In this document: in pieces, positions 9,891 through 40,278 of the stretch
Position numbering within the stretch: position 1 is the stretch's first letter
Layout: the number at the start of each line of letters is the position of its first letter
NCBI GenBank assembly: GCA_000092065.1
Contig: CP000591.1
DNA length: 64,000 bases
Source: Ostreococcus lucimarinus
Lineage: Eukaryota
Strand: one strand, 5' to 3'
Made by a program: the position numbers and the translations under genes
The notes under the pieces: generated by a model
Database searches by the model: none
Seen by the model: the letters and a program-made list of their open reading frames with translations, nothing else
What the model was told of the DNA's origin: nothing

Positions 9891-9982
9891 GCGTTGGTGC
9901 GTGCGCCGTGTACTTTTACTCCTTCCTACGCTACGGTTTCGCGCACGCCTTTAGTTTAGACGATTCGTTAGACGAAGAAACA

Positions 9983-11092: not shown

Positions 11093-11263
11093 GGCGAGCG
11101 CGAGCGGCGAAGTGTCGCTCGCGAGCGGGACGCGAAGCGTCTCGGCGCGCGGGACTAATGGGCGGGGTAGCAATACAAAGAGGCGAATCGAGCCTCGCTA
11201 AAACACACAAATACGCAAACGCAACGCGGTGACGGTCGACGCGTCGATCGATCGGCGCGTCGA

Positions 11264-11746: not shown

Positions 11747-11905
11747 GGTGTTCGCGCGTCGAGTGCGCGCGCGTGGCGGGGTGCGCTCGGTCACCGCGCG
11801 CTGCGATGTGACGCGGCGTTTCGGAGGGCGCGTTCGACGGGCTATCCTCGCGAAGCGAATAGAATTTCTATGAAAGTACACGCGTCAGGACGCGACGACG
11901 CTAGA

Positions 11906-13954: not shown

Positions 13955-14353
13955 GACGGTCGCGCGGCGCGTCGTCGCCGCGCGCGCGAATCTCGAGCTG
14001 TCGCGATGTGAGCGCGCGCCGCGCCTTCACGCTCGCGCGCGCGCGCGTCGCGCGCCGCGCGCGGCGCGCGCGCGATCGTCGTCGGTCGGTGTCGCGGTCG
14101 CGCGCGTCGTTCGCCGCGCGCTCGCGCGTGCGGCGCGCCGTCCGTCGTCGCGCGATTCAAACGCGCCGTGTTTCAGCGCTTCAATACGGACGCGGTTCAT
14201 TATATATAGTATGACACTGTATGCACACACGCGACCGACCGCACGCGCGCGAGGGTCGCGCCGCGCGCGCGATTCCGCGCCGCAGCGCGCGCGCCGACGC
14301 GCGGGGGCTCGACATCGGCGCCGAAACGCGTCGCGGTTCCGACGCTCGCCTCG
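13955..14353. promoter_or_regulatory. extremely CpG-dense (CGCG)n-like divergent intergenic region between ATG13 (-) and TatC (+)
   Basis: Nearly 400 bp of almost pure alternating CG/GCGC runs (e.g. 14030..14110 gcgcgcgcgcgcgtcgcgcgccgcgcgcggcgcgcgcgcgatcg). No ORF with coding character. It sits between two divergently oriented gene starts. Confidence 0.3.
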
Positions 14354-15544
14354 ATGTCCGTGCGCGCGGCGCCGCGACGCGCCGCGACGCGCGCGACGAC
14401 GCGAAAGATGCGCGCGGGGACGCGCGCGCGACGTCACGCGATGCGATCGCGCGAACGGGCGACGCGCGAGAAGCGCTGGACGCGGACGCGCGCGACGATG
14501 GACGACGCGGACGCGTCGCGCGCGAAAGAGGACGAGGACGTGTGGCCGGACGCGGATTTCGCGACGGGCGAGGGCGACGCGAGGACGTCGGGCGAGGGCG
14601 CGAGCGCGAGCGAGACGTTCAAGACGTCGCTCACGGATGATCCGGCGTTCGCGATGGCGCTGCGCGCGGAGGAAGACGAGAGCGTGGAGATGGTGCCGCT
14701 GGCGAGCGCGGCGGTGACGACGGTGAAGGAGAAACGGACGTTCGTGGAGGCGCCGCCGGAGGACGTGCAGCGGGAACAGGTTCGGAGTTTTCTGTACCCG
14801 GGAGAGGATGAGCTCCCGGACGACGTGTCGATGACGATATGGGAACACTTGGAGGAGCTTCGAGAGCGCGCGCTGATCTCCGCCGCGGCGGTGGGGGCGT
14901 TGATTTTGGTGTGTTTCTGCTTCGCGAAGGATTTGACGATTTTCTTGGAGGAACCCGTCAAGTCGCAGGGCGTGCGGTTTTTACAGCTCGGTCCCGGGGA
15001 GTACTTCTTCACCACGGTCAAGGTGGCGGGGTACACTGGATTGCTCGCGGGCGCGCCCGTGGTGCTTTACGAGGCGATCGCGTACGTGTTGCCGGGGTTG
15101 ACGCTGAACGAACGCAAGACGCTCGGCCCCATCGTAATCGGGTCCTCGGTGCTGTTTTACGGCGGCATCGCGTTCGCCTACTACGTGCTCGTCCCCGCGG
15201 CTTTGAAGTTCTTCGTCGGCTACGCCGACGGCGCCGTGGAGTCGCTGTGGTCGATCGACCAGTACTTTGAGTTCGTCCTCGTGTTGCTCTTCTCCACGGG
15301 TTTGTCCTTCCAAGTCCCCGTGATTCAGCTCTTGCTCGGACAATCCGGGATCGTGTCTTCCAAGCAAATGCTCAGCGTTTGGAAGTACGTCGTCGTCGGT
15401 TCCGTCGTCGCCGCCGCGGTGTTGACGCCGTCGACGGATCCGTTCACGCAAATGCTCCTCGCGGTGCCGCTGATGAGCCTGTACCTCGGCGGCGCCGCGC
15501 TCGTCGGCGTCTTCGAAAAAGACCGCGAGGGCGAGACCGCGTAA
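14354..15544 (+). CDS. TATC: Sec-independent protein translocase TatC (chloroplast-type, with long N-terminal extension/transit peptide)
   Basis: The six-TM TatC core is unmistakable: [28 protein letters not shown]..., [32 protein letters not shown]..., [43 protein letters not shown] at 14354; the true start within the basic N-terminal extension is uncertain. Confidence 0.85.
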
Positions 15545-15630
15545 GCATAGCACGCACAACATTTAGCGCACCATTCATCAACGCTCCAAAGCATCGCTTC
15601 GCTTCAACAACGAACGATAATAATACAACA

Positions 15631-15697
15631 AACGAGCTACGTCGACTAAGCGGACGCGTCCAAAGAACGAGCTGCGTCGACTAAGCGGACGCGTCCA
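15631..15697. repeat. 32-bp direct repeat x2 (aacgagctRcgtcgactaagcggacgcgtcca), period 35 bp
   Basis: Copies at 15631..15662 and 15666..15697 differ at one position. They lie in the convergent 3' region between TatC and Rpp30, and the second copy overlaps the last codons and stop of the minus-strand Rpp30 gene. Confidence 0.6.
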
Positions 15698-16628
15698 TGC
15701 GTTCGACGACGCTGTCCGTCGCCGCGGCGTCTCTCCGACGTTTACACATCGCCAACATCGCGTGCACGTTCGTCGTCATCGCCGCCCTCGCCGCCTTTTC
15801 CGTCATCCCGAAAAATGTCGCCAAGTTCACCACGTCGTACATCGATCGCAACTCGATCGCGCGCTCCGCGCCGCTCGACAAGATGAACAGTTCGCGTCCG
15901 CCGCGCGTCGCCCGCGCGAGCGCGCTCGCGTTCGCGAAGAACCACATCCTCGAGTTCGAATCCCTCAGCGCCTCCCCGTAGCACAGCTCAAACGATATCC
16001 GATTCCCCGTCGCCGCCCTCACCGCGCTCGCCGTAAACTTGTACCTCAACCGCCGCCCCGCGCCGACGCTCACCACGTCCGCGTGTTTATTCGCGCACGC
16101 GCTCGCGAACGCCCGCTCGCTCGTCGGTTCCAGCGCCAGCACGTCAAACTTCTCCAGATCCTCTCCCAGCGCGAGCATCGCGCGCCGCAGCTCTCCCGGC
16201 TCCCCGAACGCGATCGTGCACCGCGCCAGCGTCCCCGCGCCGTCCCGTCCCTCGCTTTCCCTCACCGCGCGCGTCCGCGCCTCGAGCGCCGCGCGCGCCG
16301 TCGCGCGCTGTCGCTTTGCGTCGTCGCTCCCGTCCACGCGCGCGTCGATCGCGCACGTCCGGTACCCTGCGCGCGTCGTCGCTCGCGTCAGTCGCTTTTT
16401 CGCCCATCCATCCGCGCCTCCCCATCGCGCGTTCGCGTCGCGTGCGCGACGCACCGAGCGCGCGCGCGCGGTCGAGCGCGCGCGCCGTCGTCGCCGCGAT
16501 CGTCGCCGCGTCTCCCGCCGGCGCGCGCACCCGCGCGTCGCACGGCGCGCGCATGCGCGCGTCGCGCGATGCCGAGGGCACGCGTCGCGCCGCCGCCGCC
16601 GCACACGACGACGCGCGCGACTCGACAT
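15681..16628 (-). CDS. RPP30: RNase P/MRP protein subunit Rpp30 (Rpp1-like, PHP/TIM-barrel fold)
   Basis: Collinear with human RPP30: FDVLALEPTSERAFASACANKHADVVSV, ISFELCYGEALRDSNSRMWFFANASALARATRGGRELFILSSGAERAIELRSMYDVVNLATFFGMTEKAARAAMTTN (compare LYDVVAVFPKTEKLFHIAC...LAFELVYSPAIKD...VIISSAAERPLEIRGPYDVANLGLLFGLSE). ATG at 16628, but the Arg-rich first ~65 aa may not be coding. Confidence 0.65.
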   Translation of the reverse strand: MSSRARRRVRRRRRDACPRHRATRACARRATRGCARRRETRRRSRRRRRARSTARARSVRRARDANARWGGADGWAKKRLTRATTRAGYRTCAIDARVDGSDDAKRQRATARAALEARTRAVRESEGRDGAGTLARCTIAFGEPGELRRAMLALGEDLEKFDVLALEPTSERAFASACANKHADVVSVGAGRRLRYKFTASAVRAATGNRISFELCYGEALRDSNSRMWFFANASALARATRGGRELFILSSGAERAIELRSMYDVVNLATFFGMTEKAARAAMTTNVHAMLAMCKRRRDAAATDSVVERMDASA

Positions 16629-18261
16629 GCCGCTCGCGCTCGCGCGCGGCGCGCCCGCGCTCGGCGCGACGCGCGTCGCGCTCGAGCGACGCGAACGCGC
16701 GCGACGCGGCGGCGCGACGCGACGCGACGCGACGCCGCGCGCGATGGGGGCGATGGGCGCGACGCGCGCGGGCGATCGCGCGATGACGCGCTCGAGCGCG
16801 ACGCGCGGGTCGGGCGACGATTACGACCTCGACGCGGGCATCGCGGGCGCGACGCCGGGCGATGGATGGACGCCGACGTCGTACGACGGACGCGGGAGCA
16901 CGGGGGACGTGTACCAAGGGCCGGCGCGGCTGGCGGAGGGATTGCGAAGACACACCGTGCTGGTGTACGTCGCGGACGAGACCGGGATGATCAATCGCGT
17001 CGCGGGGGTGTTCGCGCGACGAGGGTACAACATCGAATCGCTCGCGGTGGGGCTGAACATCGACAAGGCGATTTTTACGATCTCGGTGATTTGCAGCGAC
17101 GGCGACGTGGGGAAGCTGATCAAGCAGGTGAATAAATTGGCCAAGGTGCGAAAGGTGGAGAACGTCACGGATAAGGAGTGCGTGGAACGAGGGTTGATGC
17201 TGCTGAAGGTGAAGTGCGAGCCCGAACAGCGGTCGCAGGTGCTGGAGATTAATCGGATTTTCCGAGCGAGCGTGGTGGACGTGGCGGAGCGGTCGCTGAC
17301 GATGTCGGTGGTGGGGGATCCCGGGAAGAATCGAGCGTTTCAGAGCGCGCTGATGAAGTTCGGGGTGATTCAAGTCGCGCGAACGGGGAAGTTGGCGCTG
17401 AAGAGAGAGCCCGTGTACAGCGAGGCTCGGTCTCGTCGAGTGAAACTCATGGAGGCGATGCGAAAGGCGAAGGACGCGGTGAGCGGATTAAACATCAAGG
17501 AGAAGAGCGCCAAGTACGAGAGCATCTTGGCGTCACGAATCGTTCGCGCGGTCGCGGGGATGGAACACGACGATGACGGCGACTTGCACGTCGGCGACGT
17601 GTACACGTCGCTCGAGAACGACGAAATCGGAGTGTGGGACGTCCCCGTGCTCAGCTCTTCCTTCTCGGGACTGGGGCACGGTAGCGACAAAGTCGACATC
17701 GACAAGATGGACGAAAACGCCAAGTACACGCCGCACACTATCTCTATTTTGGTCGATAACCGCCCGGGCGTGTTGGATTCCATCACCGGCGTGTTCGCTC
17801 GTCGCGGGTACAACATTCAGTCCCTCGGCGTCGGCCCGGAAAGAACTTTCGACATCTCTCGCATTTCCACCGTCGTTCCGGGCAGTACCGAAGACATCGC
17901 GATGCTGCTCAAGCAAATCTTAAAGGTGCCTTACGTCATCTCCGCCGAAGATATCACGATGACGCCGTTCACGGAGCGCGAACTCATGCTCATCAAGGTC
18001 GTCAGCTCTCGCGCGCAACGAGCAGAAATTATCGATTTGTGCGGCATGTTCCGAGCCAAGGTGTGCGACATCTCCGAAGACACCGTCACCATCGAAGTCA
18101 GCGGGCGCCAGCGTAAGATTAACGCCATTCAAGCGCTTCTCGAGCCGTACGGGATTCTGGAAGTTGCGCGCAGCGGTCGCGTCGCGCTCCCGCGCGATTC
18201 GGGCGTCGATTCCAAGCTCATGATGGCGATCGAGTCCGAAAGCGATCTCGACAAGTGGTAA
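16627..18261 (+). CDS. ilvH: acetolactate synthase small (regulatory) subunit, plant-type with duplicated ACT domains (chloroplast-targeted)
   Basis: Two ACT-domain repeats match the plant ALS small subunit almost residue for residue: RHTVLVYVADETGMINRVAGVFARRGYNIESLAVGLNIDKAIFTISV and HTISILVDNRPGVLDSITGVFARRGYNIQSLGVGPERT. ATG at 16627; the N-terminal ~90 aa are a transit-peptide-like extension, so the true start may be an internal Met. Confidence 0.85.
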   Translation: MPLALARGAPALGATRVALERRERARRGGATRRDATPRAMGAMGATRAGDRAMTRSSATRGSGDDYDLDAGIAGATPGDGWTPTSYDGRGSTGDVYQGPARLAEGLRRHTVLVYVADETGMINRVAGVFARRGYNIESLAVGLNIDKAIFTISVICSDGDVGKLIKQVNKLAKVRKVENVTDKECVERGLMLLKVKCEPEQRSQVLEINRIFRASVVDVAERSLTMSVVGDPGKNRAFQSALMKFGVIQVARTGKLALKREPVYSEARSRRVKLMEAMRKAKDAVSGLNIKEKSAKYESILASRIVRAVAGMEHDDDGDLHVGDVYTSLENDEIGVWDVPVLSSSFSGLGHGSDKVDIDKMDENAKYTPHTISILVDNRPGVLDSITGVFARRGYNIQSLGVGPERTFDISRISTVVPGSTEDIAMLLKQILKVPYVISAEDITMTPFTERELMLIKVVSSRAQRAEIIDLCGMFRAKVCDISEDTVTIEVSGRQRKINAIQALLEPYGILEVARSGRVALPRDSGVDSKLMMAIESESDLDKW

Positions 18262-18297
18262 CGCGAAATTTATCAATCGAATACAACAACACAGATC

Positions 18298-19227
18298 CTA
18301 CGCCTCGCCGAGCGCCCCAGGAAACAGGCGTAAAAAGTTATCGCCTCTAATATTCGCGAGGAGCGCGGGATCGTCGTCGCCTATTTGCCGCTCGAGCACT
18401 CGAACCGCGTCGGCGTAGCCTCCCTCCTCGGCGGTGACGAAAGGGTAGTCCGACCCCCAGATCAATCGATGTGGACCGAACACCTTGACGAGCTCGCGCA
18501 ATTGCGTCGCGGTCGAGTCGCCTCCGTCGCTCGTTTCTATGCGCACGCGGAAATGCGCCGAAACCTTCACGCTCACTTGTGGGAAGTCTCGCCCGAGCGC
18601 CTGTAACAACTCAAAGTTCGGATCATCCACGCCCTTGGTGAATCCGAAGTGATCGATCAGCACCGGCACCGTCGGTTCCGCTTTGAGAAGAGCGCGAATT
18701 TCGTCCACGTGCAAATCAAGTCCGTTGAAGCACATGAAACCCACCACCGCGGGCGGCGTTCGCGCCGCGCACGCGCGCATCATTTTTCTCCCTATTTCGC
18801 CATCCATACCCTTGCCATTCGGCCATAGCCCTGGATTGAATCGGACGCCGCGAAAACGTCCCGCGAGGAGCTTCTCCAACGCCTCGACGCCGGCGTCTCC
18901 CGCGCTCGGGTTCGCCAGACACATCCCCACGAAGCGATTGGCGTGCGTCTCCAACGCACGCTCTACGTACGTGTGATCGAACCCTAGGTTTATCGGTTGC
19001 ACGATCATCGCCGCGCGCACGCCGTTGGCGTCCATCGCGGCGATGAGCTCATTCGCCGCCCCGGGAACTGGAGGCGCTTTGCCGTCTTCGTACGCGAAAT
19101 CCTCCGCGCTCGGCCACACGTGCACGTGCGCGTCGATTATGGACGCGCGCATCGCGATGCGCCGGCTCGAAACGCGCGTTGAGACGGTGACGCTCGGTCG
19201 AACTCGCCTCGCCGCGGCCGCGAGCAT
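18298..19227 (-). CDS. metal-dependent amidohydrolase (Amidohydro_2/TIM-barrel hydrolase family)
   Basis: IIDAHVHVWPS near the N-terminus is the metal-binding HxH motif. Also NRFVGMCLANP, IDHFGF and IWGSDYPF are typical of the amidohydrolase-2 family. First ATG at 19227 (the track start is GTG). Confidence 0.6.
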   Translation of the reverse strand: MLAAAARRVRPSVTVSTRVSSRRIAMRASIIDAHVHVWPSAEDFAYEDGKAPPVPGAANELIAAMDANGVRAAMIVQPINLGFDHTYVERALETHANRFVGMCLANPSAGDAGVEALEKLLAGRFRGVRFNPGLWPNGKGMDGEIGRKMMRACAARTPPAVVGFMCFNGLDLHVDEIRALLKAEPTVPVLIDHFGFTKGVDDPNFELLQALGRDFPQVSVKVSAHFRVRIETSDGGDSTATQLRELVKVFGPHRLIWGSDYPFVTAEEGGYADAVRVLERQIGDDDPALLANIRGDNFLRLFPGALGEA

Positions 19228-28792: not shown

Positions 28793-30241
28793 TTACGACG
28801 CCGCCGAGCGAACGCGACGCGGAAACGGGACGAAGGACTCGTGATCGGACTTGTCCTTGCCGGGCAGCGGCGGCGACGAGGGAATCCCAAAGTCGCGAGA
28901 TCGAAACGCGCGGAATTCGCGCTTGATGGCGGCGTACGGTTTGTTCTCCATCGCCCGACGCGCGCGGGGCGGGAGACGGGATAAAACGTCGGCGTCGAAG
29001 GAGGCGCACAGCTCTCGCGCGCACAGGGCGGAGGACGCCGCGCCGGAGGCGCGACACTTTTTGCCGTAGCCGTGGAGGAAACCGATGGCGCCGAGAAGGC
29101 GCTCGACGCGGCCGGATGCGATGTCGACGGCGCCGACGGCGTCGTTGAACTCAAACGTCGATCGCGACGGCGCGACGTACGTCACGCACGTCGGCGACGC
29201 GACGCGATCGCCGTCGACGACGGCGCGATAGGACGAGAGATCGTCGCTCGGTGCGTCGACGGCGACGCATCGTGGTTCGACCCGGTCGTCGGATTGTGAG
29301 TCGTCCAATCGCGCTCGTTTGACGATCGCGCGTTTCAACGCGAGAGCGACGACGCGTTTCGTCTCTTCGGCGCGCTCTTCGCGAACGTTTGGAATGGACA
29401 CGCAGATCGACCGTGGCTTGATCGCTTCGCGCGCGACGAGGCGCATGAGCGTGCCCTGTAAACCATGCATCTGCCAGCGACACATTTTATCCGAACAGCT
29501 CAAACAAAACGATGGCGCGCCTCTGCCCGGCTTCCATCGCACGGCGCCGACTTCTTGCGTCGGGCGATCGCGTTCGGGATCCGCGCCGCCGCCGCCACCG
29601 CCGCCACCGTTCATGTCCGTCAATATTTTCGCACCCGTCACCCCCGCACCTCCGCCCGCACCCCCCGTCGTCTTCGCTCGCTTCACCGTCGCCGTCGAAG
29701 CCTCCGCGCCGCCGTCGCTCCGCCTCGCCTCGCTCGGCAACTCGAACACGCTCGCGTCGCCGCACGGCGACTGACTGCAATACGCGTGCACCTCCACCCC
29801 CGCGCGCATTCGCACCCGATTCCCAGCGCCTAATATCTCATCCCACGCCGTCTCTTCGTCGCACCCAGCGCCGCGTTCGCGCGTCACCTCGAACACGCTC
29901 GCTCGTCCGTCCCTCGCCTCGGCGTACTCGCGCTGCAACCACCGCGTCAACGCGCGTCTCGCCAACACCTCCGCGTGACAGTCCCCGATCGCGCCCCCGT
30001 CGCGCGCGCGGTTCGCCATCGGCACGCACTTCGTCCCCGTCGCGAACGCCGCGACGTAGCACGTCCCTCGCGCGCTCGCCGCGTCGTTTCGCTCGACGAT
30101 GCAAAAAGCGCACAGCGTCGTGTACGCATCCTTCGACGTTTTCTCGCGTCCGCGCGCGTCGTACGTCGCCAGCGCGCACGCGCGCACGACTGCGGCGACG
30201 CGTTCGACGTCGTCGACGTCGTCGACGGCGTGCGCGCGCAT
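28793..30241 (-). CDS. ADAT1: tRNA-specific adenosine deaminase (ADAT1-like, A_deamin domain)
   Basis: Deaminase zinc-ligand motifs in order: DCHAEVLARRALTRWL (HAE), SPCGDAS (PCG), and CSDKMCRWQMHGLQGTLM (the conserved SDK...W..LG.QG motif of ADAR/ADAT1). ATG at 30241. Confidence 0.65.
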   Translation of the reverse strand: MRAHAVDDVDDVERVAAVVRACALATYDARGREKTSKDAYTTLCAFCIVERNDAASARGTCYVAAFATGTKCVPMANRARDGGAIGDCHAEVLARRALTRWLQREYAEARDGRASVFEVTRERGAGCDEETAWDEILGAGNRVRMRAGVEVHAYCSQSPCGDASVFELPSEARRSDGGAEASTATVKRAKTTGGAGGGAGVTGAKILTDMNGGGGGGGGADPERDRPTQEVGAVRWKPGRGAPSFCLSCSDKMCRWQMHGLQGTLMRLVAREAIKPRSICVSIPNVREERAEETKRVVALALKRAIVKRARLDDSQSDDRVEPRCVAVDAPSDDLSSYRAVVDGDRVASPTCVTYVAPSRSTFEFNDAVGAVDIASGRVERLLGAIGFLHGYGKKCRASGAASSALCARELCASFDADVLSRLPPRARRAMENKPYAAIKREFRAFRSRDFGIPSSPPLPGKDKSDHESFVPFPRRVRSAAS

Positions 30242-30294
30242 GCGCGCGCGCGAGACTGCCGATTCGCGCGCGCGTCTCGTCGCGCGCGTCGCCG

Positions 30295-30328
<34 letters not shown>

Positions 30329-30523
30329 AGTCGAGCGCGTTCGAGCGCCCTCACTGTTCGCGTATACGCCATGTGTCCGAACATCGCGCGCGCTTTTCGC
30401 GTTTCGCGCCGCGCGCGTCGTATTGCGCGACGACGCGTCCCATCGATCGCGACGCGCGATCGCTAAGCGCGATCGCGACGCGCGCGACCGACCGACCGAC
30501 CGCCGTTACATGCGCCAACACCA

Positions 30524-30529
30524 TAAATG
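30524..30529 (+). promoter_or_regulatory. TATA-like ATAAAT element ~85 bp upstream of the giant-gene ATG, preceded by a (CCGA)4 microsatellite
   Basis: caccATAAATgaggttgcgc is one of the very few A/T hexamers in a GC-saturated divergent intergenic region (30242..30609). Confidence 0.2.
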
Positions 30530-30609
30530 AGGTTGCGCATCGCATCTTTCGCCAGATCGCGACGCGCGTCGCCCGCGACGCCGCGAACGAGGACGGCGAA
30601 CGACCGGCG

Positions 30610-33600
30610 ATGACGCGCGTCGAGCGCGTCGCGCTGCTCGGACGCGCGCGCGACGTCGAGGACGGCACGCTCGGCGCGGGAGGCGCGTTCTTCGGGACGA
30701 ACACCGCGCGCGACGGCGACGGCGACGACGACGGCGCGCGAGAGCGCGCGCGCGAGCGCGGCGGCGCGCGGCGAGGACGGGGGACGATCGCGGTGGGAGC
30801 GATGTGCGTCGCGATCGGGGTCGCGATCGGATCGGTGACGACGTCGACGCGGGAGGGAGGACGGACGACGGGCGACGTCGCGAGCGTCGGCGCGAACGCG
30901 CCGAGCGGAGCGACGAGTCGCGCGGCGCGGGGCGCGGAAGAGGCGAATTTGGGCGACGCGACGTCGTTGGCGATCGCGAGCGTTCCCGCGGATTCGTGGA
31001 TGTCGTTCTCGACGGGGAAAGTGCGAAAGCGAAAGTATCCGGATTCGTTTTATTACGTCGTCGCGCCGGAGGCGGACGAGGAGGTCGGGTATTTGGGCGC
31101 GCCGAGCGACTGGCCGACCGGGGATCGGGTGACGGTGGATCTGCACACCGGGTGCTCGCCGATCGACGCTCTGCCGTTCCAGCGTCCCGGGTTTGATTTC
31201 GACACCGTTCAGGCCCGCTTTGTGAGCAAGAAGCTCAGCATGGAGTTCATGTTTGAGGACTCGCAGCCGATGACCAAAGTCGGGTGCGGACATTTCCGGG
31301 CCACGGTAGAGCTCTCGAAAGGATGGGAGTTTGGGTTCTATCTTCATGCGAATGGCGACGACAGCGACGAGAACACGATGCTCGACATCGGGTGCGAAAC
31401 CGCGGTGCCGGGCGCCAACAACACCAAGTGTCCGGATTTCGCTTCACCGGCGATGCTCGCGACTTCGGAGTGCACGGACAAATTCGTGTGTAATCATGGT
31501 CTGTACACGTTCTGGAATCGAAGATACGATGGCGAACAAACGTCGTTCCTGTGGGGGGCTTGCGGAAGCGAGTGTCCGCACCAGGACTGCGGCCACATGT
31601 ACTGCGCGGCGAACGAGCGCGTGCAGAACCAAGCGTGCGCGTCGTGTCCGCCTGGGACGACGAACGATGCGGGCGATAAGAACGTCGGCGCCGATACGCA
31701 GTGTGATCCGGTCATCTGCGGAGCGCACATGCGCGTGCAAGATCACAACTGCGTGCAGTGCGTCGCCGGTAAGGAGAACGAAGCCGGCGACGACGCCTCA
31801 CAAAGTAACACCGAGTGCGACGCCGTCATTTGCGAGCCGAATCATCACGTGGCGGGCAATGTGTGCACGGCGTGTCCCGCCGGTCACGCGCACGCCGGCG
31901 GCGACGTGCAGCACGGCCCTGATACGTCGTGCGACGAAGTGCTTTGCCACACGAACGAGCGCGTTCTCGGCCACCAGTGCGTGGCGTGTCCTCCGGGCTC
32001 GACGAACGCCGCCGGCGACGGCGCGGCGAGCGGCGATACGCAGTGCGACCACACTATTTGTCCGGCGAACATGCACGTCGTTGGTCACGTGTGCACGCCG
32101 TGTCCACCGGGTATGAACCACCCAGGTGGCGACGACGCTTTTTTCGGCGACACGTCGTGCAGCGCCATTCTCTGCCAGTCGAATCAGCGCGTGCTGGGTC
32201 ACGCGTGCGTCAGCTGTCCGCCCGGGACGACGAACGATGCGGACGACGACGCCTCGGGTGGCGACACGCAGTGCGATCCGGTCATCTGCGGAGCGCACAT
32301 GCGCGTGCAAGATCACAACTGCGTGCAGTGCGTCGCCGGTAAGGAGAACGAAGCCGGCGACGACGCCTCACAAAGTAACACCGAGTGCGACGCCGTCATT
32401 TGCGAGCCGAATCATCACGTGGCGGGCAATGTGTGCACGGCGTGTCCCGCCGGTCACGCGCACGCCGGCGGCGACGTGCAGCACGGCCCTGATACGTCGT
32501 GCGACGAAGTGCTTTGCCACACGAACGAGCGCGTTCTCGGCCACCAGTGCGTGGCGTGTCCTCCGGGCTCGACGAACGCCGCCGGCGACGGCGCGGCGAG
32601 CGGCGATACGCAGTGCGACCACACTATTTGTCCGGCGAACACGCACGTCGTTGGTCACGTGTGCACGCCGTGTCCACCGGGTATGAACCACCCAGGTGGC
32701 GACGACGCTTTTTTCGGCGACACGTCGTGCAGCGCCATTCTCTGCCAGTCGAATCAGCGCGTGCTGGGTCACGCGTGCGTCAGCTGTCCGCCCGGGACGA
32801 CGAACGATGCGGACGACGACGCCTCGGGTGGCGACACGCAGTGTGATCCGGTCATCTGCGGAGCGCACATGCGCGTGCAAGATCACAACTGCGTGCAGTG
32901 CGTCGCCGGTAAGGAGAACGAAGCCGGTGACGACGCCTCACAAAGTAACACCGAGTGCGACGCCGTCATTTGCGAGCCGAATCATCACGTGGCGGGCAAT
33001 GTGTGCACGGCGTGTCCCGCCGGTCACGCGCACGCCGGCGGCGACGTGCAGCACGGCCCTGATACGTCGTGCGACGAAGTGCTTTGCCACACGAACGAGC
33101 GCGTTCTCGGCCACCAGTGCGTGGCGTGTCCTCCGGGCTCGACGAACGCCGCCGGCGACGGCGCGGCGAGCGGCGATACACAGTGCGACCACACTATTTG
33201 TCCGGCGAACACGCACGTCGTTGGTCACGTGTGCACGCCGTGCGCGCCGGGTCGTGACCACCCAGGTGGCGACGATGCGACTCTCGGCGACACGTCGTGC
33301 AGTGCCATCATGTGCGGGCCCAACCAGCACGTCGTGAGCCACGCTTGCACGGTGTGTCCAGCAGGAATGGTTAACGATGCGAACGACGACGCTTCGGGTG
33401 GCGACACGCATTGCGATCCGATACTGTGTCCATCGAATCAACGCGTGCAGGGTCATACGTGTGTGCAATGTGCGCCCGGGAAGACCAACGCACCCAATGA
33501 TGATGCCTCTAGGGGCGACACTGAGTGCGATATTACGTACTGCGCCGCAAATCAGCGCGTACAGGGCCATCAATGTGTCGCGTGTGCGCCCGGCACGACG

Positions 33601-36600
33601 AACGATGCCGGCGATGACGCCTCGCAAGTCGACACGCAGTGCGCTCCGATCATTTGTGGCGCACACATGCGAGTTCAAAGTCACGCGTGCGTACAGTGCG
33701 TCCCGGGTCGCGAGAACCTGGCGGGTGACGACGCCTCCGGCCAAGATACACCCTGCGATGAAATCGTGTGCGAAGAGAACCACAAGGTCGTGAGCCACCA
33801 GTGCGTGGCGTGCCCCGCGGGGAAGATACACACGGCTGGCGATGTTGCTTCGGGGCCAGACACGTCTTGCGACGCGGTGACGTGTAGCACGAACGAGCGC
33901 GTTCAAGGCCACCAGTGCGTGGCGTGTCCGGCCGGCACGACAAACGACGGCGGCGACGACGCGTCGGGTGGCGACACGCAGTGCGATCCGGTCATTTGTC
34001 CAGCACAAACGCACGTACAAAACCACGTGTGTGAGGTGTGTCCTCCCGGTCATGCGCACCCAGGTGGTGACGACGCGTCTCAAGGCGACACGCAGTGCGA
34101 CGCAGTGATGTGTGGGGCAAATTATCACGTGCAAGATCATCATTGCGTGCCATGTCCAACGGGTAAAGACAATCAAGCGAACGACAATGCCGCGGGCGCA
34201 GATACAGAGTGCGACATCATCTATTGTGCTGCCAATCAACGCGTACAAAACAACGTCTGTACCGCGTGTCCGCCCGGCACAATTAATGCAGGCGGTGATA
34301 ACGCGTTTGACCATGATACCACTTGCGATACCGTTTATTGCGGCGTGAATCAACACGTCTTTGAAAATGAATGCGTCCCTTGTCCGGCAGGGATGGTAAA
34401 CCCGTCGGGAGACGACGCCACCGGGCCCCGCACGTTTTGCGAGCCAATCATCTGCGGCGCGCACATGCACGTACAGAATCATCAGTGCGTGCAATGTGCT
34501 CCAGGTGATGAAAATTTGGCTGGCGATAGTGCCGCGCAACACGATACCACCTGCGACGAGGTCACTTGTTCTGCGAACGAGCACGTGGTGAGCCACCAAT
34601 GCACGGCGTGTCCCGCCGGTCACGCGCACGCTGGCGGCGACGTGCAGCACGGCCCTGATACGTCGTGCGACGAAGTGCTTTGCCACACGAACGAGCGCGT
34701 TCAAGGCCACCAGTGCGTGGCGTGTCCTCCGGGCTCGACGAACGCCGCCGGCGACGGCGCGGCAAGCGGCGATACGCAGTGCGACCACACTATTTGTCCG
34801 GCGAACACGCACGTCGTCGGTCACGTGTGCACGCCGTGCGCGCCAGGCTACGAACGACTTGCCGGCGACGACGCCACCGGTGGTGATACGCAATGCAGTG
34901 CTGTCTTGTGCGGCGCAAACATGCACGTGCAGAATAATTTGTGCGCGGCGTGCCCCGCTGGCACGACGAACGCCGCCGGCGACGACGCCTCGCGAGGAAA
35001 CTCGGAATGCGATCACACTATCTGCGAAGCGCACATGCGAGTGCAGAGTCATCAGTGCGTCGCGTGCATGGATGGCAAGGAAAATCTGGCGGGAGACGAT
35101 GCCGCTGGGGGGGACACACAATGCGATGAAGTCATCTGCGCTGCCGATCATCATGTATTAAACCATCAGTGTGTATCGTGCCCTTACGGTCACGCGCACG
35201 CCGGCGGCGACGTGCAGCACGGCCCTGATACGTCGTGCGACGAAGTGCTTTGCCACACGAACGAGCGCGTTCTCGGCCACCAGTGCGTGGCGTGTCCTCC
35301 GGGCTCAACGAACGCCGCCGGCGACGGCGCGGCGAGCGGCGATACGCAGTGCGACCACACTATTTGTCCGGCGAACACGCACGTCGTTGGTCACGTGTGC
35401 ACGCCGTGCGCGCCGGGTCGTGAACACCCAGCCGGCGACGACGCCACCGGTGGTGATACGCAATGCAGCGCCGTGATGTGCGGATCCAACATGCACGTCC
35501 AAAACCACGTGTGCACGGCGTGCCCGGCCGGGACGACGAACGCCGCCGGCGACGACGCTTCCGGAGCGAATACGCAGTGCGACCCAATCTTGTGTGGCGC
35601 GAACCAACACGTCTTGAATCATCAGTGCATGCAGTGCCCGCCCGGCACGCTCAATGACGCCAGCGATAGCGCTGCCGGTGGTAATACGCAGTGCGACGCC
35701 GTGCAGTGCGGCTGCAACCAACGCGTGCAGGGCCATCAATGTGTCACGTGTGCGCCCGGGACGACGAACGACGCCGGCGATGACGCCTCACAAGGCGATA
35801 CGCAGTGCGATCCGACCATCTGCGGCGCGCACATGCGAGTGCAAGATCACGCGTGCGTAGCGTGTGTGGACGGTCGAGAGAACCTGGCGGGTGACGACGC
35901 CTCACAAGGCAACACGCAGTGCGACGAAATCGTGTGCGAAGAGAACCACAAGGTCGTGAGCCACCAGTGCGTGGCGTGCCCCGCGGGGAAGATACACACG
36001 GCTGGCGATATTGCTTCGGGCCCAGACACGTCTTGCGACGCGGTGACGTGTAGCACGAACGAGCGCGTTCAAGGCCACCAGTGCGTGGCGTGTCCGGCTG
36101 GCACGACAAACGACGGCGGCGACGACGCGTCGGGTGGCGACACGCAGTGCGATATTACCCGGTGCACGGCGCACATGCACGTACAAAACCATGTGTGCGT
36201 GCAGTGCCCGGCCGGTAAAGAGAACGTCGCGGGTGATGACGCCTCTGGAGGTAACACGGAATGCGACGTCGTGCGATGCGGTGCCAACCAGCACGTCGTC
36301 GACCACGTGTGCACGGCGTGTCCGGCCGGGACGACGAACGATGAAGGCGACGACGCTTCGGGAGCGAACACGCAGTGCGATCCCGTCATCTGTGAATTGC
36401 ACATGCGAGTGCAGAATCATCAGTGCGTCGCGTGTGCGCCTGGCAAGGAGAATCTGGCGGGCGACGACGCCTCGCAAGGTAACACCGAGTGCGACGCCGT
36501 CATTTGTTCTGCGAACGAGCACGTGGTGAGCCACCAATGCACGGCGTGTCCCGCCGGTCACGCGCACGCCGGCGGCGACGTGCAGCACGGCCCTGATACG

Positions 36601-39600
36601 TCGTGCGACGAAGTGCTTTGCCACACGAACGAGCGCGTTCTCGGCCACCAGTGCGTGGCGTGTCCTCCGGGCTCAACGAACGCCGCCGGCGACGGCGCGG
36701 CGAGCGGCGATACGCAGTGCGACCACACTATTTGCCCTGCGAACACGCACGTCGTCGGTCACGCGTGCACGCCGTGTCCGCCAGGTCATGAACACCCGGC
36801 CGGCGACGACGCCACCGGTGGTGATACGCAATGCAGCGCCGTGTCGTGTGGGCCCAACATGCACGTCCAAAACCACGCGTGCACGGCGTGCCCGGCCGGG
36901 ACGACGAACGCCGCCGGCGACGACGCTTCTGGAGCGAATACGCAGTGCGATGCGACAATTTGCGCACACAACAAGCATGTTGTCAACCACGAGTGTGTTC
37001 CGTGTCCAGATGGCCATGAACACCCAGGCGTCGCTGATGCTTCTGGCTCCGATACTTCGTGTGATGTCACGCTGTGTGGCGCGAACCAACACGTCGTGAA
37101 TCATCAGTGCATGCAGTGCCCCCCCGGCACGCTCAATGACGCCAGCGATAGCGCTGCCGGTGGTAATACGCAGTGCGACACCGTGCAGTGCGGCGTCAAC
37201 CAACGCGTGCAGGGCCATCAATGTGTCACGTGTGCGCCCGGGACGACGAACGACGCCGGCGATGACGCCTCACAAGGCGATACGCAGTGCGATCCGACCA
37301 TCTGCGGCGCGCACATGCGAGTGCAAGATCACGCGTGCGTAGCGTGTGTGGACGGTCGAGAGAACCTGGCGGGTGACGACGCCTCACAAGGCAACACGCA
37401 GTGCGACGAAATCGTGTGCGAAGAGAACCACAAGGTCGTGAGCCACCAGTGCGTGGCGTGCCCCGCGGGGAAGATACACACGGCTGGCGATATTGCTTCG
37501 GGCCCAGACACGTCTTGCGACGCGGTGACGTGTAGCACGAACGAGCGCGTTCAAGGCCACCAGTGCGTGGCGTGTCCGGCTGGCACGACAAACGACGGCG
37601 GCGACGACGCGTCGGGTGGCGACACGCAGTGCGATATTACCCGGTGCACGGCGCACATGCACGTACAAAACCATGTGTGCGTGCAGTGCCCGGCCGGTAA
37701 AGAGAACGTCGCGGGTGATGACGCCTCTGGAGGTAACACGGAATGCGACGTCGTGCGATGCGGTGCCAACCAGCACGTCGTCGACCACGTGTGCACGGCG
37801 TGTCCGGCCGGGACGACGAACGATGAAGGCGACGACGCTTCGGGAGCGAACACGCAGTGCGATCCCGTCATCTGTGAATTGCACATGCGAGTGCAGAATC
37901 ATCAGTGCGTCGCGTGTGCGCCTGGCAAGGAGAACGAAGCCGGCGACGACGCCTCGCAAGGTAACACCGAGTGCGACGCCGTCATTTGTTCTGCGAACGA
38001 GCACGTGGTGAGCCACCAATGCACGGCGTGTCCCGCCGGTCACGCGCACGCCGGCGGCGACGTGCAGCACGGCCCTGATACGTCGTGCGACGAAGTGCTT
38101 TGCCACACGAACGAGCGCGTTCTCGGCCACCAGTGCGTGGCGTGTCCTCCGGGCTCAACGAACGCCGCCGGTGACGGCGCGGCGAGCGGCGATACGCAGT
38201 GCGACCACACTATTTGCCCTGCGAACACGCACGTCGTCGGTCACGCGTGCACGCCGTGTCCGCCAGGTCATGAACACCCGGCCGGCGACGACGCCACCGG
38301 TGGTGATACGCAATGCAGCGCCGTGATGTGCGGATCCAACATGCACGTCCAAAACCACGTGTGCACGGCGTGCCCGGCCGGGACGACGAACGCCGCCGGC
38401 GACGACGCTTCTGGAGCGAATACGCAGTGTGATGTCACGCTGTGCGGCGCGAACCAACACGTCGTGAATCATCAGTGCATGCAGTGCCCGCCCGGCACGC
38501 TCAATGACGCCAGCGATAGCGCTGCCGGTGGTAATACGCAGTGCGACGCCGTGCAGTGCGGCTGCAACCAACGCGTGCAGGGCCATCAATGTGTCACGTG
38601 TGCGCCCGGGACGACGAACGACGCCGGCGATGACGCCTCACAAGGCGATACGCAGTGCGATCCGACCATCTGCGGCGCGCACATGCGAGTGCAAGATCAC
38701 GCGTGCGTAGCGTGTGTGGACGGTCGAGAGAACCTGGCGGGTGACGACGCCTCACAAGGCAACACGCAGTGCGACGAAATCGTGTGCGAAGAGAACCACA
38801 AGGTCGTGAGCCACCAGTGCGTGGCGTGCCCCGCGGGGAAGATACACACGGCTGGCGATATTGCTTCGGGCCCAGACACGTCTTGCGACGCGGTGACGTG
38901 TAGCACGAACGAGCGCGTTCAAGGCCACCAGTGCGTGGCGTGTCCGGCTGGCACGACAAACGACGGCGGCGACGACGCGTCGGGTGGCGACACGCAGTGC
39001 GATATTACCCGGTGCACGGCGCACATGCACGTACAAAACCATGTGTGCGTGCAGTGCCCGGCCGGTAAAGAGAACGTCGCGGGTGATGACGCCTCTGGAG
39101 GTAACACGGAATGCGACGTCGTGCGATGCGGTGCCAACCAGCACGTCGTCGACCACGTGTGCACGGCGTGTCCGGCCGGGACGACGAACGATGAAGGCGA
39201 CGACGCTTCGGGAGCGAACACGCAGTGCGATCCCGTCATCTGTGAATTGCACATGCGAGTGCAGAATCATCAGTGCGTCGCGTGTGCGCCTGGCAAGGAG
39301 AACGAAGCCGGCGACGACGCCTCGCAAGGTAACACCGAGTGCGACGCCGTCATTTGTTCTGCGAACGAGCACGTGGTGAGCCACCAATGCACGGCGTGTC
39401 CCGCCGGTCACGCGCACGCTGGCGGCGACGTGCAGCACGGCCCTGATACGTCGTGCGACGAAGTGCTGTGCCACACGAACGAGCGCGTTCTCGGCCACCA
39501 GTGCGTGGCGTGTCCTCCGGGCTCAACGAACGCCGCCGGCGACGGCGCGGCGAGCGGCGATACGCAGTGCGACCACACCATTTGCCCTGCGAACACGCAC

Positions 39601-40278
39601 GTCGTCGGTCACGCGTGCACGCCGTGTCCGCCAGGTCATGAACACCCGGCCGGCGACGACGCCACCGGTGGTGATACGCAATGCAGCGCCGTGTCGTGCG
39701 GGCCCAACATGCACGTCCAAAACCACGTGTGCACGGCGTGCCCGGCCGGGACGTGGAACGATGAAGGCGATGACGCTTCCGGTGCGAACACGCAGTGCGA
39801 TCCGGTCATCTGTGAAGTGCACATGCGAGTGCACGATCACGCGTGCGTTGCGTGTGCGCCTGGCAAGGAGAACGAAGCCGGCGACGACGCCTCGCAAGGT
39901 AACACCGAGTGCGACGCCGTCATTTGCGAGCCGAATCATCACGTGGCGGGCAATGTGTGCACGGCGTGTCCCGCCGGTCACGCGCACGCCGGCGGCGACG
40001 TGCAGCACGGCCCTGATACGTCGTGCGACGAAGTGCTTTGCCACACGAACGAGCGCGTTCAAGACCACCAGTGCGTGGCGTGTCCTCCGGGCTCGACGAA
40101 CGCCGCCGGCGACGGCGTGGCAAGCGGCAATACGCAGTGCGACAGCACTATTTGCGGGGCGAACAGGTACGTATCAAACCATGTGTGCGTGCTTTGCCCT
40201 TACCAACACTATCGCGCCGCCGGCGACGACGCCACCGGTCCCGACACGGCATGTATACGATATTACGGTCTCGGATAG
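30610..40278 (+). CDS. giant cysteine/histidine-rich tandem-repeat surface protein (predicted type-II membrane protein; ~75 ephrin-receptor-like/GCC2_GCC3-like 38-aa repeats)
   Basis: A single uninterrupted 3,222-codon frame from the ATG at 30610. After ~55 aa a hydrophobic signal-anchor GTIAVGAMCVAIGVAIGSV is followed by a unique ~290-aa domain (YYVVAPEADEEVGYLGAPSDWPTGDRVTVDLHTGCSPIDALPFQRPGFDFD...). From ~31590 come ~75 back-to-back 38-aa repeats of the form C-D-x3-C-x2-N-x-R-V-x-x-H-x-C-V-x-C-P-x-G-x-x-N-x-x-G-D-D-A-S-x-x-D-T-x. The ORF-track extension back to 29512 overlaps ADAT1 on the other strand and is Arg/Ser/Pro junk. Confidence 0.75.
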   Translation: MTRVERVALLGRARDVEDGTLGAGGAFFGTNTARDGDGDDDGARERARERGGARRGRGTIAVGAMCVAIGVAIGSVTTSTREGGRTTGDVASVGANAPSGATSRAARGAEEANLGDATSLAIASVPADSWMSFSTGKVRKRKYPDSFYYVVAPEADEEVGYLGAPSDWPTGDRVTVDLHTGCSPIDALPFQRPGFDFDTVQARFVSKKLSMEFMFEDSQPMTKVGCGHFRATVELSKGWEFGFYLHANGDDSDENTMLDIGCETAVPGANNTKCPDFASPAMLATSECTDKFVCNHGLYTFWNRRYDGEQTSFLWGACGSECPHQDCGHMYCAANERVQNQACASCPPGTTNDAGDKNVGADTQCDPVICGAHMRVQDHNCVQCVAGKENEAGDDASQSNTECDAVICEPNHHVAGNVCTACPAGHAHAGGDVQHGPDTSCDEVLCHTNERVLGHQCVACPPGSTNAAGDGAASGDTQCDHTICPANMHVVGHVCTPCPPGMNHPGGDDAFFGDTSCSAILCQSNQRVLGHACVSCPPGTTNDADDDASGGDTQCDPVICGAHMRVQDHNCVQCVAGKENEAGDDASQSNTECDAVICEPNHHVAGNVCTACPAGHAHAGGDVQHGPDTSCDEVLCHTNERVLGHQCVACPPGSTNAAGDGAASGDTQCDHTICPANTHVVGHVCTPCPPGMNHPGGDDAFFGDTSCSAILCQSNQRVLGHACVSCPPGTTNDADDDASGGDTQCDPVICGAHMRVQDHNCVQCVAGKENEAGDDASQSNTECDAVICEPNHHVAGNVCTACPAGHAHAGGDVQHGPDTSCDEVLCHTNERVLGHQCVACPPGSTNAAGDGAASGDTQCDHTICPANTHVVGHVCTPCAPGRDHPGGDDATLGDTSCSAIMCGPNQHVVSHACTVCPAGMVNDANDDASGGDTHCDPILCPSNQRVQGHTCVQCAPGKTNAPNDDASRGDTECDITYCAANQRVQGHQCVACAPGTTNDAGDDASQVDTQCAPIICGAHMRVQSHACVQCVPGRENLAGDDASGQDTPCDEIVCEENHKVVSHQCVACPAGKIHTAGDVASGPDTSCDAVTCSTNERVQGHQCVACPAGTTNDGGDDASGGDTQCDPVICPAQTHVQNHVCEVCPPGHAHPGGDDASQGDTQCDAVMCGANYHVQDHHCVPCPTGKDNQANDNAAGADTECDIIYCAANQRVQNNVCTACPPGTINAGGDNAFDHDTTCDTVYCGVNQHVFENECVPCPAGMVNPSGDDATGPRTFCEPIICGAHMHVQNHQCVQCAPGDENLAGDSAAQHDTTCDEVTCSANEHVVSHQCTACPAGHAHAGGDVQHGPDTSCDEVLCHTNERVQGHQCVACPPGSTNAAGDGAASGDTQCDHTICPANTHVVGHVCTPCAPGYERLAGDDATGGDTQCSAVLCGANMHVQNNLCAACPAGTTNAAGDDASRGNSECDHTICEAHMRVQSHQCVACMDGKENLAGDDAAGGDTQCDEVICAADHHVLNHQCVSCPYGHAHAGGDVQHGPDTSCDEVLCHTNERVLGHQCVACPPGSTNAAGDGAASGDTQCDHTICPANTHVVGHVCTPCAPGREHPAGDDATGGDTQCSAVMCGSNMHVQNHVCTACPAGTTNAAGDDASGANTQCDPILCGANQHVLNHQCMQCPPGTLNDASDSAAGGNTQCDAVQCGCNQRVQGHQCVTCAPGTTNDAGDDASQGDTQCDPTICGAHMRVQDHACVACVDGRENLAGDDASQGNTQCDEIVCEENHKVVSHQCVACPAGKIHTAGDIASGPDTSCDAVTCSTNERVQGHQCVACPAGTTNDGGDDASGGDTQCDITRCTAHMHVQNHVCVQCPAGKENVAGDDASGGNTECDVVRCGANQHVVDHVCTACPAGTTNDEGDDASGANTQCDPVICELHMRVQNHQCVACAPGKENLAGDDASQGNTECDAVICSANEHVVSHQCTACPAGHAHAGGDVQHGPDTSCDEVLCHTNERVLGHQCVACPPGSTNAAGDGAASGDTQCDHTICPANTHVVGHACTPCPPGHEHPAGDDATGGDTQCSAVSCGPNMHVQNHACTACPAGTTNAAGDDASGANTQCDATICAHNKHVVNHECVPCPDGHEHPGVADASGSDTSCDVTLCGANQHVVNHQCMQCPPGTLNDASDSAAGGNTQCDTVQCGVNQRVQGHQCVTCAPGTTNDAGDDASQGDTQCDPTICGAHMRVQDHACVACVDGRENLAGDDASQGNTQCDEIVCEENHKVVSHQCVACPAGKIHTAGDIASGPDTSCDAVTCSTNERVQGHQCVACPAGTTNDGGDDASGGDTQCDITRCTAHMHVQNHVCVQCPAGKENVAGDDASGGNTECDVVRCGANQHVVDHVCTACPAGTTNDEGDDASGANTQCDPVICELHMRVQNHQCVACAPGKENEAGDDASQGNTECDAVICSANEHVVSHQCTACPAGHAHAGGDVQHGPDTSCDEVLCHTNERVLGHQCVACPPGSTNAAGDGAASGDTQCDHTICPANTHVVGHACTPCPPGHEHPAGDDATGGDTQCSAVMCGSNMHVQNHVCTACPAGTTNAAGDDASGANTQCDVTLCGANQHVVNHQCMQCPPGTLNDASDSAAGGNTQCDAVQCGCNQRVQGHQCVTCAPGTTNDAGDDASQGDTQCDPTICGAHMRVQDHACVACVDGRENLAGDDASQGNTQCDEIVCEENHKVVSHQCVACPAGKIHTAGDIASGPDTSCDAVTCSTNERVQGHQCVACPAGTTNDGGDDASGGDTQCDITRCTAHMHVQNHVCVQCPAGKENVAGDDASGGNTECDVVRCGANQHVVDHVCTACPAGTTNDEGDDASGANTQCDPVICELHMRVQNHQCVACAPGKENEAGDDASQGNTECDAVICSANEHVVSHQCTACPAGHAHAGGDVQHGPDTSCDEVLCHTNERVLGHQCVACPPGSTNAAGDGAASGDTQCDHTICPANTHVVGHACTPCPPGHEHPAGDDATGGDTQCSAVSCGPNMHVQNHVCTACPAGTWNDEGDDASGANTQCDPVICEVHMRVHDHACVACAPGKENEAGDDASQGNTECDAVICEPNHHVAGNVCTACPAGHAHAGGDVQHGPDTSCDEVLCHTNERVQDHQCVACPPGSTNAAGDGVASGNTQCDSTICGANRYVSNHVCVLCPYQHYRAAGDDATGPDTACIRYYGLG
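31700..33240 (+). repeat. higher-order repeat A: 570-bp unit (5 x 114 bp), ~2.7 near-identical copies
   Basis: The protein block CDPVICGAHMRVQDHNCVQCVAGKENEAGDDASQSNTECDAVICEPNHHVAGNVCTACPAGHAHAGGDVQHGPDTSCDEVLCHTNERVLGHQCVACPPGSTNAAGDGAASGDTQCDHTICPAN.HVVGHVCTPC... begins at 31702, 32272 and 32842 with essentially identical DNA. The antisense ORFs at 31798..32316 and 32368..32886 are letter-identical apart from one residue. Confidence 0.85.
35190..39600 (+). repeat. higher-order repeat B: 1368/1482-bp units (12 or 13 x 114 bp), ~3 near-identical copies
   Basis: The reverse-strand ORFs at 35902..36648, 37384..38130 and 38752..39498 translate almost identically (1-2 differences in 248 aa), spaced 1482 and 1368 bp apart. 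The forward protein repeats a ~460-aa block (CDPILCGANQHV.NHQCMQCPPGTLNDASDSAAGGNTQCD...CTACPAGTTNAAGDDASGANTQCD) three times. Confidence 0.85.

Follow-up and report, generated by a model that had tools for sequence, protein, structure and literature searches.

How can a tract of little more than two hundred base pairs remain nearly identical at nine irregularly spaced positions of a coding repeat array, when the sequences on either side of it have diverged? The question is raised by a giant gene of Ostreococcus lucimarinus, which lies on the plus strand of a 64,000-nucleotide stretch of contig CP000591.1 (GenBank assembly GCA_000092065.1), referred to here, at its full length, as the window. 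The gene encodes a cysteine-rich array of 38-residue units, in which a preliminary description of the DNA had recognized a cassette of approximately three modules, recurring nine times, and attributed it either to gene conversion and unequal recombination, with the cassette as the homology tract, or to a functionally special module. The evidence favors the first of these options, and the cassette is probably (at a rough probability of 0.8) the shared, actively homogenized core of a coding tandem array under concerted evolution.

The cassette and the repeats that carry it

The nine occurrences of CDEVLCHTNERV begin at 31930, 32500, 33070, 34666, 35236, 36604, 38086, 39454, and 40024, with spacings of 570, 570, 1596, 570, 1368, 1482, 1368, and 570 bp, equivalent to 5, 5, 14, 5, 12, 13, 12, and 5 units of 114 bp. 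The number of copies and the spacings are exactly those described previously, while the positions had been placed 1 nt too low. A search with the 36-mer at the start of the cassette, allowing up to three mismatches, recovered nine matches (eight exact, and one with a single mismatch), against an expectation of zero in 100 shuffles; all nine lie inside the array, and no match was found in the 64-kb window beyond positions 31930-40059. Column-by-column comparison places the limits of the conserved tract at approximately -57 and +171 relative to these starts, that is, some 228 bp or 76 residues (CPAGHAHAGGDVQHGPDTS / CDEVLC...GDTQ / CDHTICPAN.HVVGH.CTP), which take in the final third of one unit, all of the following unit, and the initial half of the one after that. 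The tract covers parts of three units and matches the peptide originally quoted, which bears out the notion of a cassette of about three modules. Over the 228 bp, each of copies 1-8 departs from the consensus at 0-8 positions, and copy 9 (at 40024) shares only the portion from approximately -66 to +104 (around 170 bp). The few variants specific to particular copies are located at +14, +71, +86, +98, and +110.

Each 38-residue unit has the cysteine pattern C-x4-C-x10-C-x2-C, and the clustering of the units yields the string A BCDEF BCDEF BCDE GHIJKLMNOPQ RDS TUV DS WXYZKLabc RDS WdXYZKLabc RDS WXYZKLabc RDS Wc CD e. Two families of higher-order repeats can be read from this string, a 5-unit family (B-C-D-E-F) and a 12/13-unit family (R-D-S-W-X-Y-Z-K-L-a-b-c), to which are added a 14-unit copy, old and diverged, and a remnant at the end of the array. 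In the 5-unit repeat, copies 1 and 2 differ at only two of their 570 nucleotides, and copy 3 has diverged in its final 1.5 units. The pairs of 12/13-unit copies, once unit 48 is removed, differ at 13-34 of 1368 nucleotides; these differences are clustered in patches that support conflicting groupings, with 24 sites at which B1 is the odd copy, against 10 for B2 and 3 for B3. The ten intervening units of this repeat are 97.5-100% identical across the copies, many of them 100%. The spacing of 1482 bp exists because unit 48 is inserted in one copy of the 12-unit repeat.

Within each family, then, the modules between the cassettes are as invariant as the cassette itself, and the earlier statement that they diverge holds between the families, and not within the 12-unit repeat. 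It is misleading to picture an array that diversifies, punctuated by a conserved unit, given that the array is a mosaic of 5- and 12/13-unit repeats homogenized throughout. The families differ from one another by 26-37%, except in a tract of approximately 170-260 bp centered on unit D. Unit D and its half-neighbors are distinctive only as the sole piece common to both families, the old diverged middle copy, and the terminal remnant, and it is because the cassette is common to all of these that there are nine copies, spaced by 5, 12, 13, and 14 units. The cassette is not the only patch that resembles the product of conversion, however, given the presence of a second homogenized island at units 20-21, surrounded by unique units of no more than approximately 75% identity.

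Silent sites, tract edges, and competing explanations

The near-invariance noted originally extends to the synonymous positions, as revealed by the proposed comparison within and between cassettes, for which divergence was pooled over the pairs of cassette copies from different flank contexts. The core has a nucleotide divergence of 0.055, with proportions of synonymous (pS) and nonsynonymous (pN) differences of 0.11 and 0.036, respectively, whereas the corresponding values are 0.26, 0.54, and 0.18 in the left flank, and 0.375, 0.60, and 0.31 in the right flank. With a dS of around 1 and a dN/dS of approximately 0.2-0.3, the flanks are old segments under purifying selection, rather than diversifying ones. 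Diversifying selection on the modules between the cassettes, which was considered as a candidate, is rejected on the basis of this ratio.

The shared tracts are 170-260 bp long and contain 1-7 mismatches, against a divergence of 30-40% in the flanks. In the pairs that do not include copy 9, the per-pair binomial P ranges from 1e-15 to 1e-43. Copy 9 is significant only in relation to copy 4 (2e-31), with P values of 0.35-7.5e-05 in its other pairs, because three clustered mismatches at +37..+40 cut these tracts to 53 bp. The ends of the tracts are ragged, falling at -33, -49, -66, or -100 on the left, and at +104, +130, +159, or +172 to +187 on the right, depending on the pair, a variation that fits several independent events of exchange, where a single selected module would give fixed edges. 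The types of flank are also reshuffled across the cassette, in the combinations C-D-E, R-D-S, V-D-S, and C-D-e, and unit 74 matches units 3, 8, and 13, which lie some 8 kb away, at 100% identity. A derived change of two bases, which replaces Gln (CAA/CAG) with Leu (CTC), is common to seven copies in three flank contexts, and the Gln codon is retained in copies 4 and 9, as well as in every cassette copy of a related lineage.

This lineage is represented by a 1.17-Mb long-read metagenome contig (L003) from a related Ostreococcus-like alga, which carries a homologous gene (6916-18845) that is 67-68% identical over the N-terminal region (the anchor, the juxtamembrane domain, and the first units). 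The array of L003 has approximately 90-96 units, counted in a sequence with some of the frame-shifting indels typical of long-read assemblies, and has the same unit types, order, and 5-unit and 12-unit repeats as the window. It contains at least ten cassettes, near-identical to one another, seven of ten having 0-3 differences from the consensus for L003, and most 0-4. The consensus of the cassette in the window differs from that of L003 at 43 of 228 nucleotides, 32 of which have no base in common between the species, and at 10 of 76 residues. Between the species, pS and pN are 0.46 and 0.12 in the core, compared with 0.59 and 0.13 in the rest of the repeat, and units K, L, and a are equally or more conserved. 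For each of the 12 types of unit in the long repeat, the copies within a genome are more similar to each other than to those of the other species, which is the classical signature of concerted evolution and argues against a special constraint at the protein level. A functional element at the nucleotide level in the cassette was also considered, and is rejected on the basis of the between-species pS. In L003, units B-R-D-S-W are all homogenized between the short and the long repeats, beyond the 228-bp core. A word-indexed search for homologues of units 3-5 recovered only fragments from the same two lineages.

Three independent Joint Genome Institute (JGI) contigs of 550-620 kb (L004-L006), which are 99.5-99.8% identical to the window, match its array unit for unit, with 0-2 nucleotide differences per unit and the same order and cassette positions. 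Their array (approximately 220-10252) has 88 units and ten cassettes, against the 76 units of the window, and the additional 1368-bp repeat of 12 units shows no difference from the third copy at any of the sites that are variable among the copies of the repeat. The difference may represent either a polymorphism of one repeat step or the collapse of one copy in the window assembly. Unit 48, which sits in an otherwise 98-99% identical repeat copy, is present in L004-L006, and has no counterpart in the L003 array. In a short-read contig from Tara Oceans (L001, ERR868431), of the same species and approximately 99% identical in the flanks, the array is reduced to five units, with units 1-3 joined directly to units 75-76 through the cassette (10001-11659), and encodes a protein of 552 residues. 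The most simple explanation is a collapse during assembly, with a natural deletion allele as the alternative; just such a collapse would be expected of an assembly based on k-mers.

Taken together, these patterns are consistent with a process in which misaligned homologous recombination between the repeats of a rod of 76 disulfide-bonded modules, grouped in two higher-order repeats, would keep the copies near-identical through unequal crossing-over and short-tract gene conversion, and would also shift the copy number in steps of whole repeats. Since the families have diverged everywhere except in the tract around unit D, the exchange between them would be continuing there, or would have been recent, and the tract would be both a product of this exchange and the best remaining substrate for further exchange. 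The role of the cassette as a homology tract, proposed at the outset, is well supported by the silent sites, the sharp but ragged edges, the recombined flanks, the fixed differences specific to each species, and the apparent whole-repeat difference between strains.

The second proposal, that the cassette is a functionally special module (a metal site based on histidine or a hinge resistant to proteases, to which an epitope that binds a ligand can be added), appears unlikely, together with the strong purifying selection that would preserve it while the spacers drift. The copy number of unit D is the highest of any type (9, against 4-5 in the next), the HAHAGGDVQHG motif is conserved in L003, histidine is somewhat raised (8 in 76 residues, or 10.5%, against an array mean of 7.0%), and the core is marginally better conserved between the species than the rest of the repeat, all of which would suit such a role. 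Selection on the protein, however, cannot remove synonymous differences, in which the core (pS 0.11) contrasts with its flanks (0.54-0.60), and the change in the cassette between the species, in both residues and nucleotides, is like that of other units, while its edges vary among the pairs of copies. Its length, cysteine register, and predicted fold (pLDDT, the predicted local distance difference test, above 90) are those of its neighbors, rather than those of a linker or hinge: the AlphaFold2 (AF2) model of a five-unit segment that includes it (pLDDT 93.9) is a string of beta-hairpin modules, in which the cassette (pLDDT 89-97) adopts the same hairpin pattern as the adjacent units, and keeps the register of 38 residues and four cysteines. 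The hinge is not supported by this model, in which standard modules appear throughout, and nothing in the sequence points to the binding of metal. The histidine content, on which the metal site and the hinge had been based, was also overestimated, given that AGHAHAGGDVQHG contains three of these residues, rather than five, and that the cassette, considered to be the richest part of the array, is surpassed by the stretch formed by units 26-27, with ten. Nothing indicates a role of the cassette in the protein that differs from that of the neighboring modules.

Simple descent would account for the identity if the copies were fresh duplicates left by the expansion of the array, with no conversion between diverged repeats. 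Recent duplication certainly adds to the copy number, whole copies within each family are as similar as this would predict (97.5-100%), and the extra copy of L004-L006 is indistinguishable from its neighbor at the sites variable among the repeat copies. Duplication copies flanks and core together, however, and so cannot yield flanks with a dS of around 1, at least as old as the split between the species, directly abutting a core with so few synonymous differences; the 5- and 12-unit repeats are, moreover, already present in L003, and the derived Leu codon is common to anciently diverged contexts. Hypermutation of the flanks, which might rescue this account, is argued against by their ordinary dN/dS, and recent descent alone is very unlikely to be the explanation. 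The identity and spacing might also be artificial, generated by repeat copies that were mis-joined or averaged into a consensus during assembly. The locus is demonstrably hard to assemble, as seen from the collapse of L001 through the cassette and from the 1368-bp copy by which the window falls short of three other assemblies, but the agreement of L004-L006 in unit types, order, and cassette positions rules out an artifact as the source of the architecture. The long-read contig L003 has the same architecture, the frame is open and free of indels across 8.66 kb, and consensus averaging does not produce sharply bounded identity inside diverged flanks, all of which makes an artifact highly improbable.

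A number of points weigh against the interpretation of the cassette as a homogenized core, in whole or in part. The recombination step, with its events of exchange, is deduced from the patterns of the sequences. The core is slightly better conserved between the species than the rest of the repeat (nucleotide divergence of 0.197 versus 0.236), and selection could, in parallel with conversion, favor the repetition of an identical epitope or binding site. The difference between 88 and 76 units could have arisen if two identical copies of 1368 bp were merged into one in the window assembly, rather than from a real polymorphism, and even a real extra copy could stem from a crossover anywhere in the 1368-bp repeat, which would not implicate the cassette specifically. 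The relationship of the L003 gene to that of the window may be paralogous, and not strictly orthologous, given that L003 is not syntenic with the window, having a 6PF2K gene downstream where the window has BRCA2, although this would leave the argument for concerted evolution unaffected. The GC content of third codon positions (GC3) increases with the copy number of the unit type (rho 0.60, p 4e-4), from 0.62 in the single-copy units to 0.80 in the cassette core, a correlation that takes linked unit types as independent; it faintly suggests the pattern expected from GC-biased gene conversion in the homogenized parts. The single-copy units 22-26 (33982-34551) and 48 have an unusually low GC3, of 0.47-0.61, compared with values of 0.80 for the cassette and 0.81 for the N-terminal region.

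The mechanism is a textbook one, of a well-known kind, and its recognition here refines the understanding of such arrays, and overturns nothing. The new element is the instance itself, a giant surface-protein gene of Ostreococcus, the full-length product of which is missing from the catalogue searched, with a strictly in-frame array and an order of repeats conserved from one species to the other. As an array with two nested higher-order repeats, it would provide a clean and quantifiable case of concerted evolution inside a protein-coding gene, in which a short tract is exchanged between anciently diverged families. A further suggestion, that the cassette is a maintained recombination joint by which a surface rod on the scale of 200 nm is quickly lengthened, shortened, and reshuffled, is doubtful. 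If it were true, it would fit the existence in nature of alleles of 76, 88, and possibly five units, variation in length might be selected by the adsorption of prasinoviruses or by interactions between cells, and the length of the array would be a trait of ecological relevance that evolves quickly in the smallest of the free-living eukaryotes, encoded by a gene absent from the present catalogues of proteins.

The encoded protein and comparable systems

The gene begins at the ATG at 30610, which lines up with the start of the homologous gene of L003, and from this alignment the product has 3,222 residues. The enclosing open reading frame (ORF) spans 29512-40278 on the plus strand, its first 366 codons being an arginine-rich read-through that lies outside the gene. 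A short N-terminal tail is followed by a single hydrophobic helix, a domain of approximately 160-220 residues, and the 76 units, an architecture from which the protein appears to be an extended surface rod, anchored in the membrane in the type II orientation. The L003 gene ends directly after a W-type unit (..TQCV*), and that of the window with a distinct terminal unit and CIRYYGLG*.

The juxtamembrane domain looks like an uncatalogued domain family. A Pfam scan of the N-terminal region, including this domain, returned no family matches, and the AF2 model (pLDDT 88.7) is a beta-sandwich with a weak resemblance to CBM20/25/26. The homologues that were inspected are membrane-anchored, with the domain placed after an N-terminal anchor and followed by unrelated C-terminal modules, such as RCC1 repeats, Kringle plus ephrin-receptor-like, Gly-rich, PAN, and DUF285. 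In the array, the Pfam family PF23091 (ELAPOR1-like TNFR) matches units 1-16 marginally (37.0 bits against a cut-off of 33.2, in seven stretches), no family match was found in a scan of units 17-32, and a search of the PDB sequences with a profile of five-unit segments returned no match. The best matches of a Foldseek search of the PDB, mostly domains of the TNF-receptor type, include OX40, DR6, 4-1BB, Elapor1, the cysteine-rich domain (CRD) of EphA2, and the mastigoneme of Chlamydomonas, all of them weak (E 0.008-0.3, with TM-scores of approximately 0.3 or lower).

The canonical CRD of the TNF receptors (TNFR) has six cysteines. The units described here would share with the TNF-receptor, ELAPOR1, and ephrin-receptor-like domains (PF23091, PF07699) the arrangement of disulfide-stabilized beta-hairpin modules of around 40 residues, stacked as an elongated rod, but have four cysteines each, in a pattern other than the canonical one, and form a run of 76 consecutive units, far beyond any TNFR. 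The mastigoneme protein Mst1 of Chlamydomonas (PDB 8wa2) is likewise a green-algal extracellular protein with long runs of small, disulfide-rich modules, and has the top query TM-score among the best matches (TMq 0.32), with a weak E of 0.03 that does not demonstrate homology. Unlike Mst1, the Ostreococcus protein is anchored in the membrane near its N-terminus, next to a juxtamembrane domain of a different kind, and belongs to an alga that has no flagella.

Systems of antigenic variation based on cassettes include the variant surface glycoproteins (VSG) of the trypanosomes and pilE/pilS of Neisseria. As in these systems, gene conversion would transfer short stretches of coding sequence from one segment of a surface-protein gene to another, related one; in contrast with them, no silent donor copies are found beyond the array within the 64-kb window, and conversion would homogenize the Ostreococcus array, rather than diversify it, the diverged segments being under purifying selection.

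Higher-order repeat arrays under concerted evolution are familiar from the alpha-satellites, and coding cases include the repeats of the spider silk spidroins, mucins, and adhesins. In common with such arrays, the units of the Ostreococcus gene are monomers grouped in multi-unit repeats, near-identical within a genome and diverged between species, with a copy number that may move in whole-repeat steps and a patchy homogenization, which points to unequal crossing-over and gene conversion. Literature relevant to arrays of this type includes PMC9779670 and PMC8122249. The Ostreococcus array differs from them in being protein-coding, with a strict 114-bp frame that is reported as indel-free over 76-96 units in two species. 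The 5- and 12/13-unit periods also coexist in a single gene, both being older than the split between the species, and only a tract of approximately 228 bp stays homogenized between the families in O. lucimarinus.

Features of the gene and its surroundings

The coordinates of the gene, its array, and the copies of the cassette are given in Table 1.

Table 1. Features of the giant gene in the window, with the evidence or context of each.
Feature	Coordinates	Strand	Evidence or context
Giant gene, 3,222 codons plus stop	30610..40278	+	Continuous ORF; type II membrane protein (inferred) with 76-unit cysteine-rich array
Predicted transmembrane anchor GTIAVGAMCVAIGVAIGSVT	30781..30840	+	Top Kyte-Doolittle window of the protein; position kept in the L003 homologue
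Juxtamembrane beta-sandwich domain (predicted)	31105..31587	+	No Pfam family; 66 representative homologues; AF2 model
Array of 76 in-register 114-bp units (38 residues, 4 Cys each), indel-free	31588..40251	+	Unit parsing, identity matrix, clustering
5-unit (570-bp) higher-order repeat, 3 copies (units 2-6, 7-11, 12-16)	31702..33411	+	
12/13-unit higher-order repeat, 3 copies (1368, 1482, 1368 bp)	35236..39453	+	
Second homogenized island, units 20-21 (types K, L), ~245 bp	33754..33981	+	97-99% identical to units 39-40, 52-53, 64-65
Unit 48, unique, nearest relative 62% identical	36946..37059	+	Turns one 12-unit repeat into 13 units
Cassette core, copy 1	31873..32100	+	Flank context C-D-E
Cassette core, copy 2	32443..32670	+	Context C-D-E
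Cassette core, copy 3	33013..33240	+	Context C-D-E'
Cassette core, copy 4	34609..34836	+	Context R'-D-S'; ancestral Gln codon CAA kept at +37..+39
Cassette core, copy 5	35179..35406	+	Context V-D-S; identity begins at ~-49 on the left
Cassette core, copy 6	36547..36774	+	Context R-D-S, 12/13-unit repeat
Cassette core, copy 7	38029..38256	+	Context R-D-S
Cassette core, copy 8	39397..39624	+	Context R-D-S
Cassette core, copy 9, terminal, truncated	39958..40128	+	Context C-D-e; identity stops at ~+104; ancestral Gln codon kept

An exact look-up of the full-length product of 3,222 residues, with either start codon, found no match in a collection of 15 billion proteins, and searches of the literature found no account of this protein or array. 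On the JGI contigs (L004-L006, 1-10279), the gene callers place a ladder of antisense ORFs (172, 172, 738, 248, and 181 residues, among others) and a C-terminal fragment of 92 residues over the gene; these antisense ORFs have no Pfam matches in the gene tables. This giant surface-protein gene of Ostreococcus (approximately 3,200-3,700 residues) is poorly handled by the resources searched, in which the full-length product is missing, short-read assembly collapses the array, and callers of the prokaryote style report antisense ORFs in its place. Surveys of picoalgal surface proteins, whether for virus receptors or for variation at the level of strains, would overlook this gene.

The neighboring ORFs of the window encode BRCA2, APC2, ATG13, a Mot1-like SNF2 ATPase, and a Toc75-like Omp85 protein, which indicates a eukaryotic source. 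The product of the ORF at 28796-30241, on the minus strand, matches XP_001420424.1 without any difference; this is a tRNA adenosine deaminase from Ostreococcus lucimarinus CCE9901, so that the window would be a segment of a chromosome from this picoalga or from a strain almost identical to it. A direct repeat of 35 bp (15631-15697; 1.9 copies, 96% identity) occupies the start of the ORF 15681-16628, on the minus strand, and the sequence immediately upstream.

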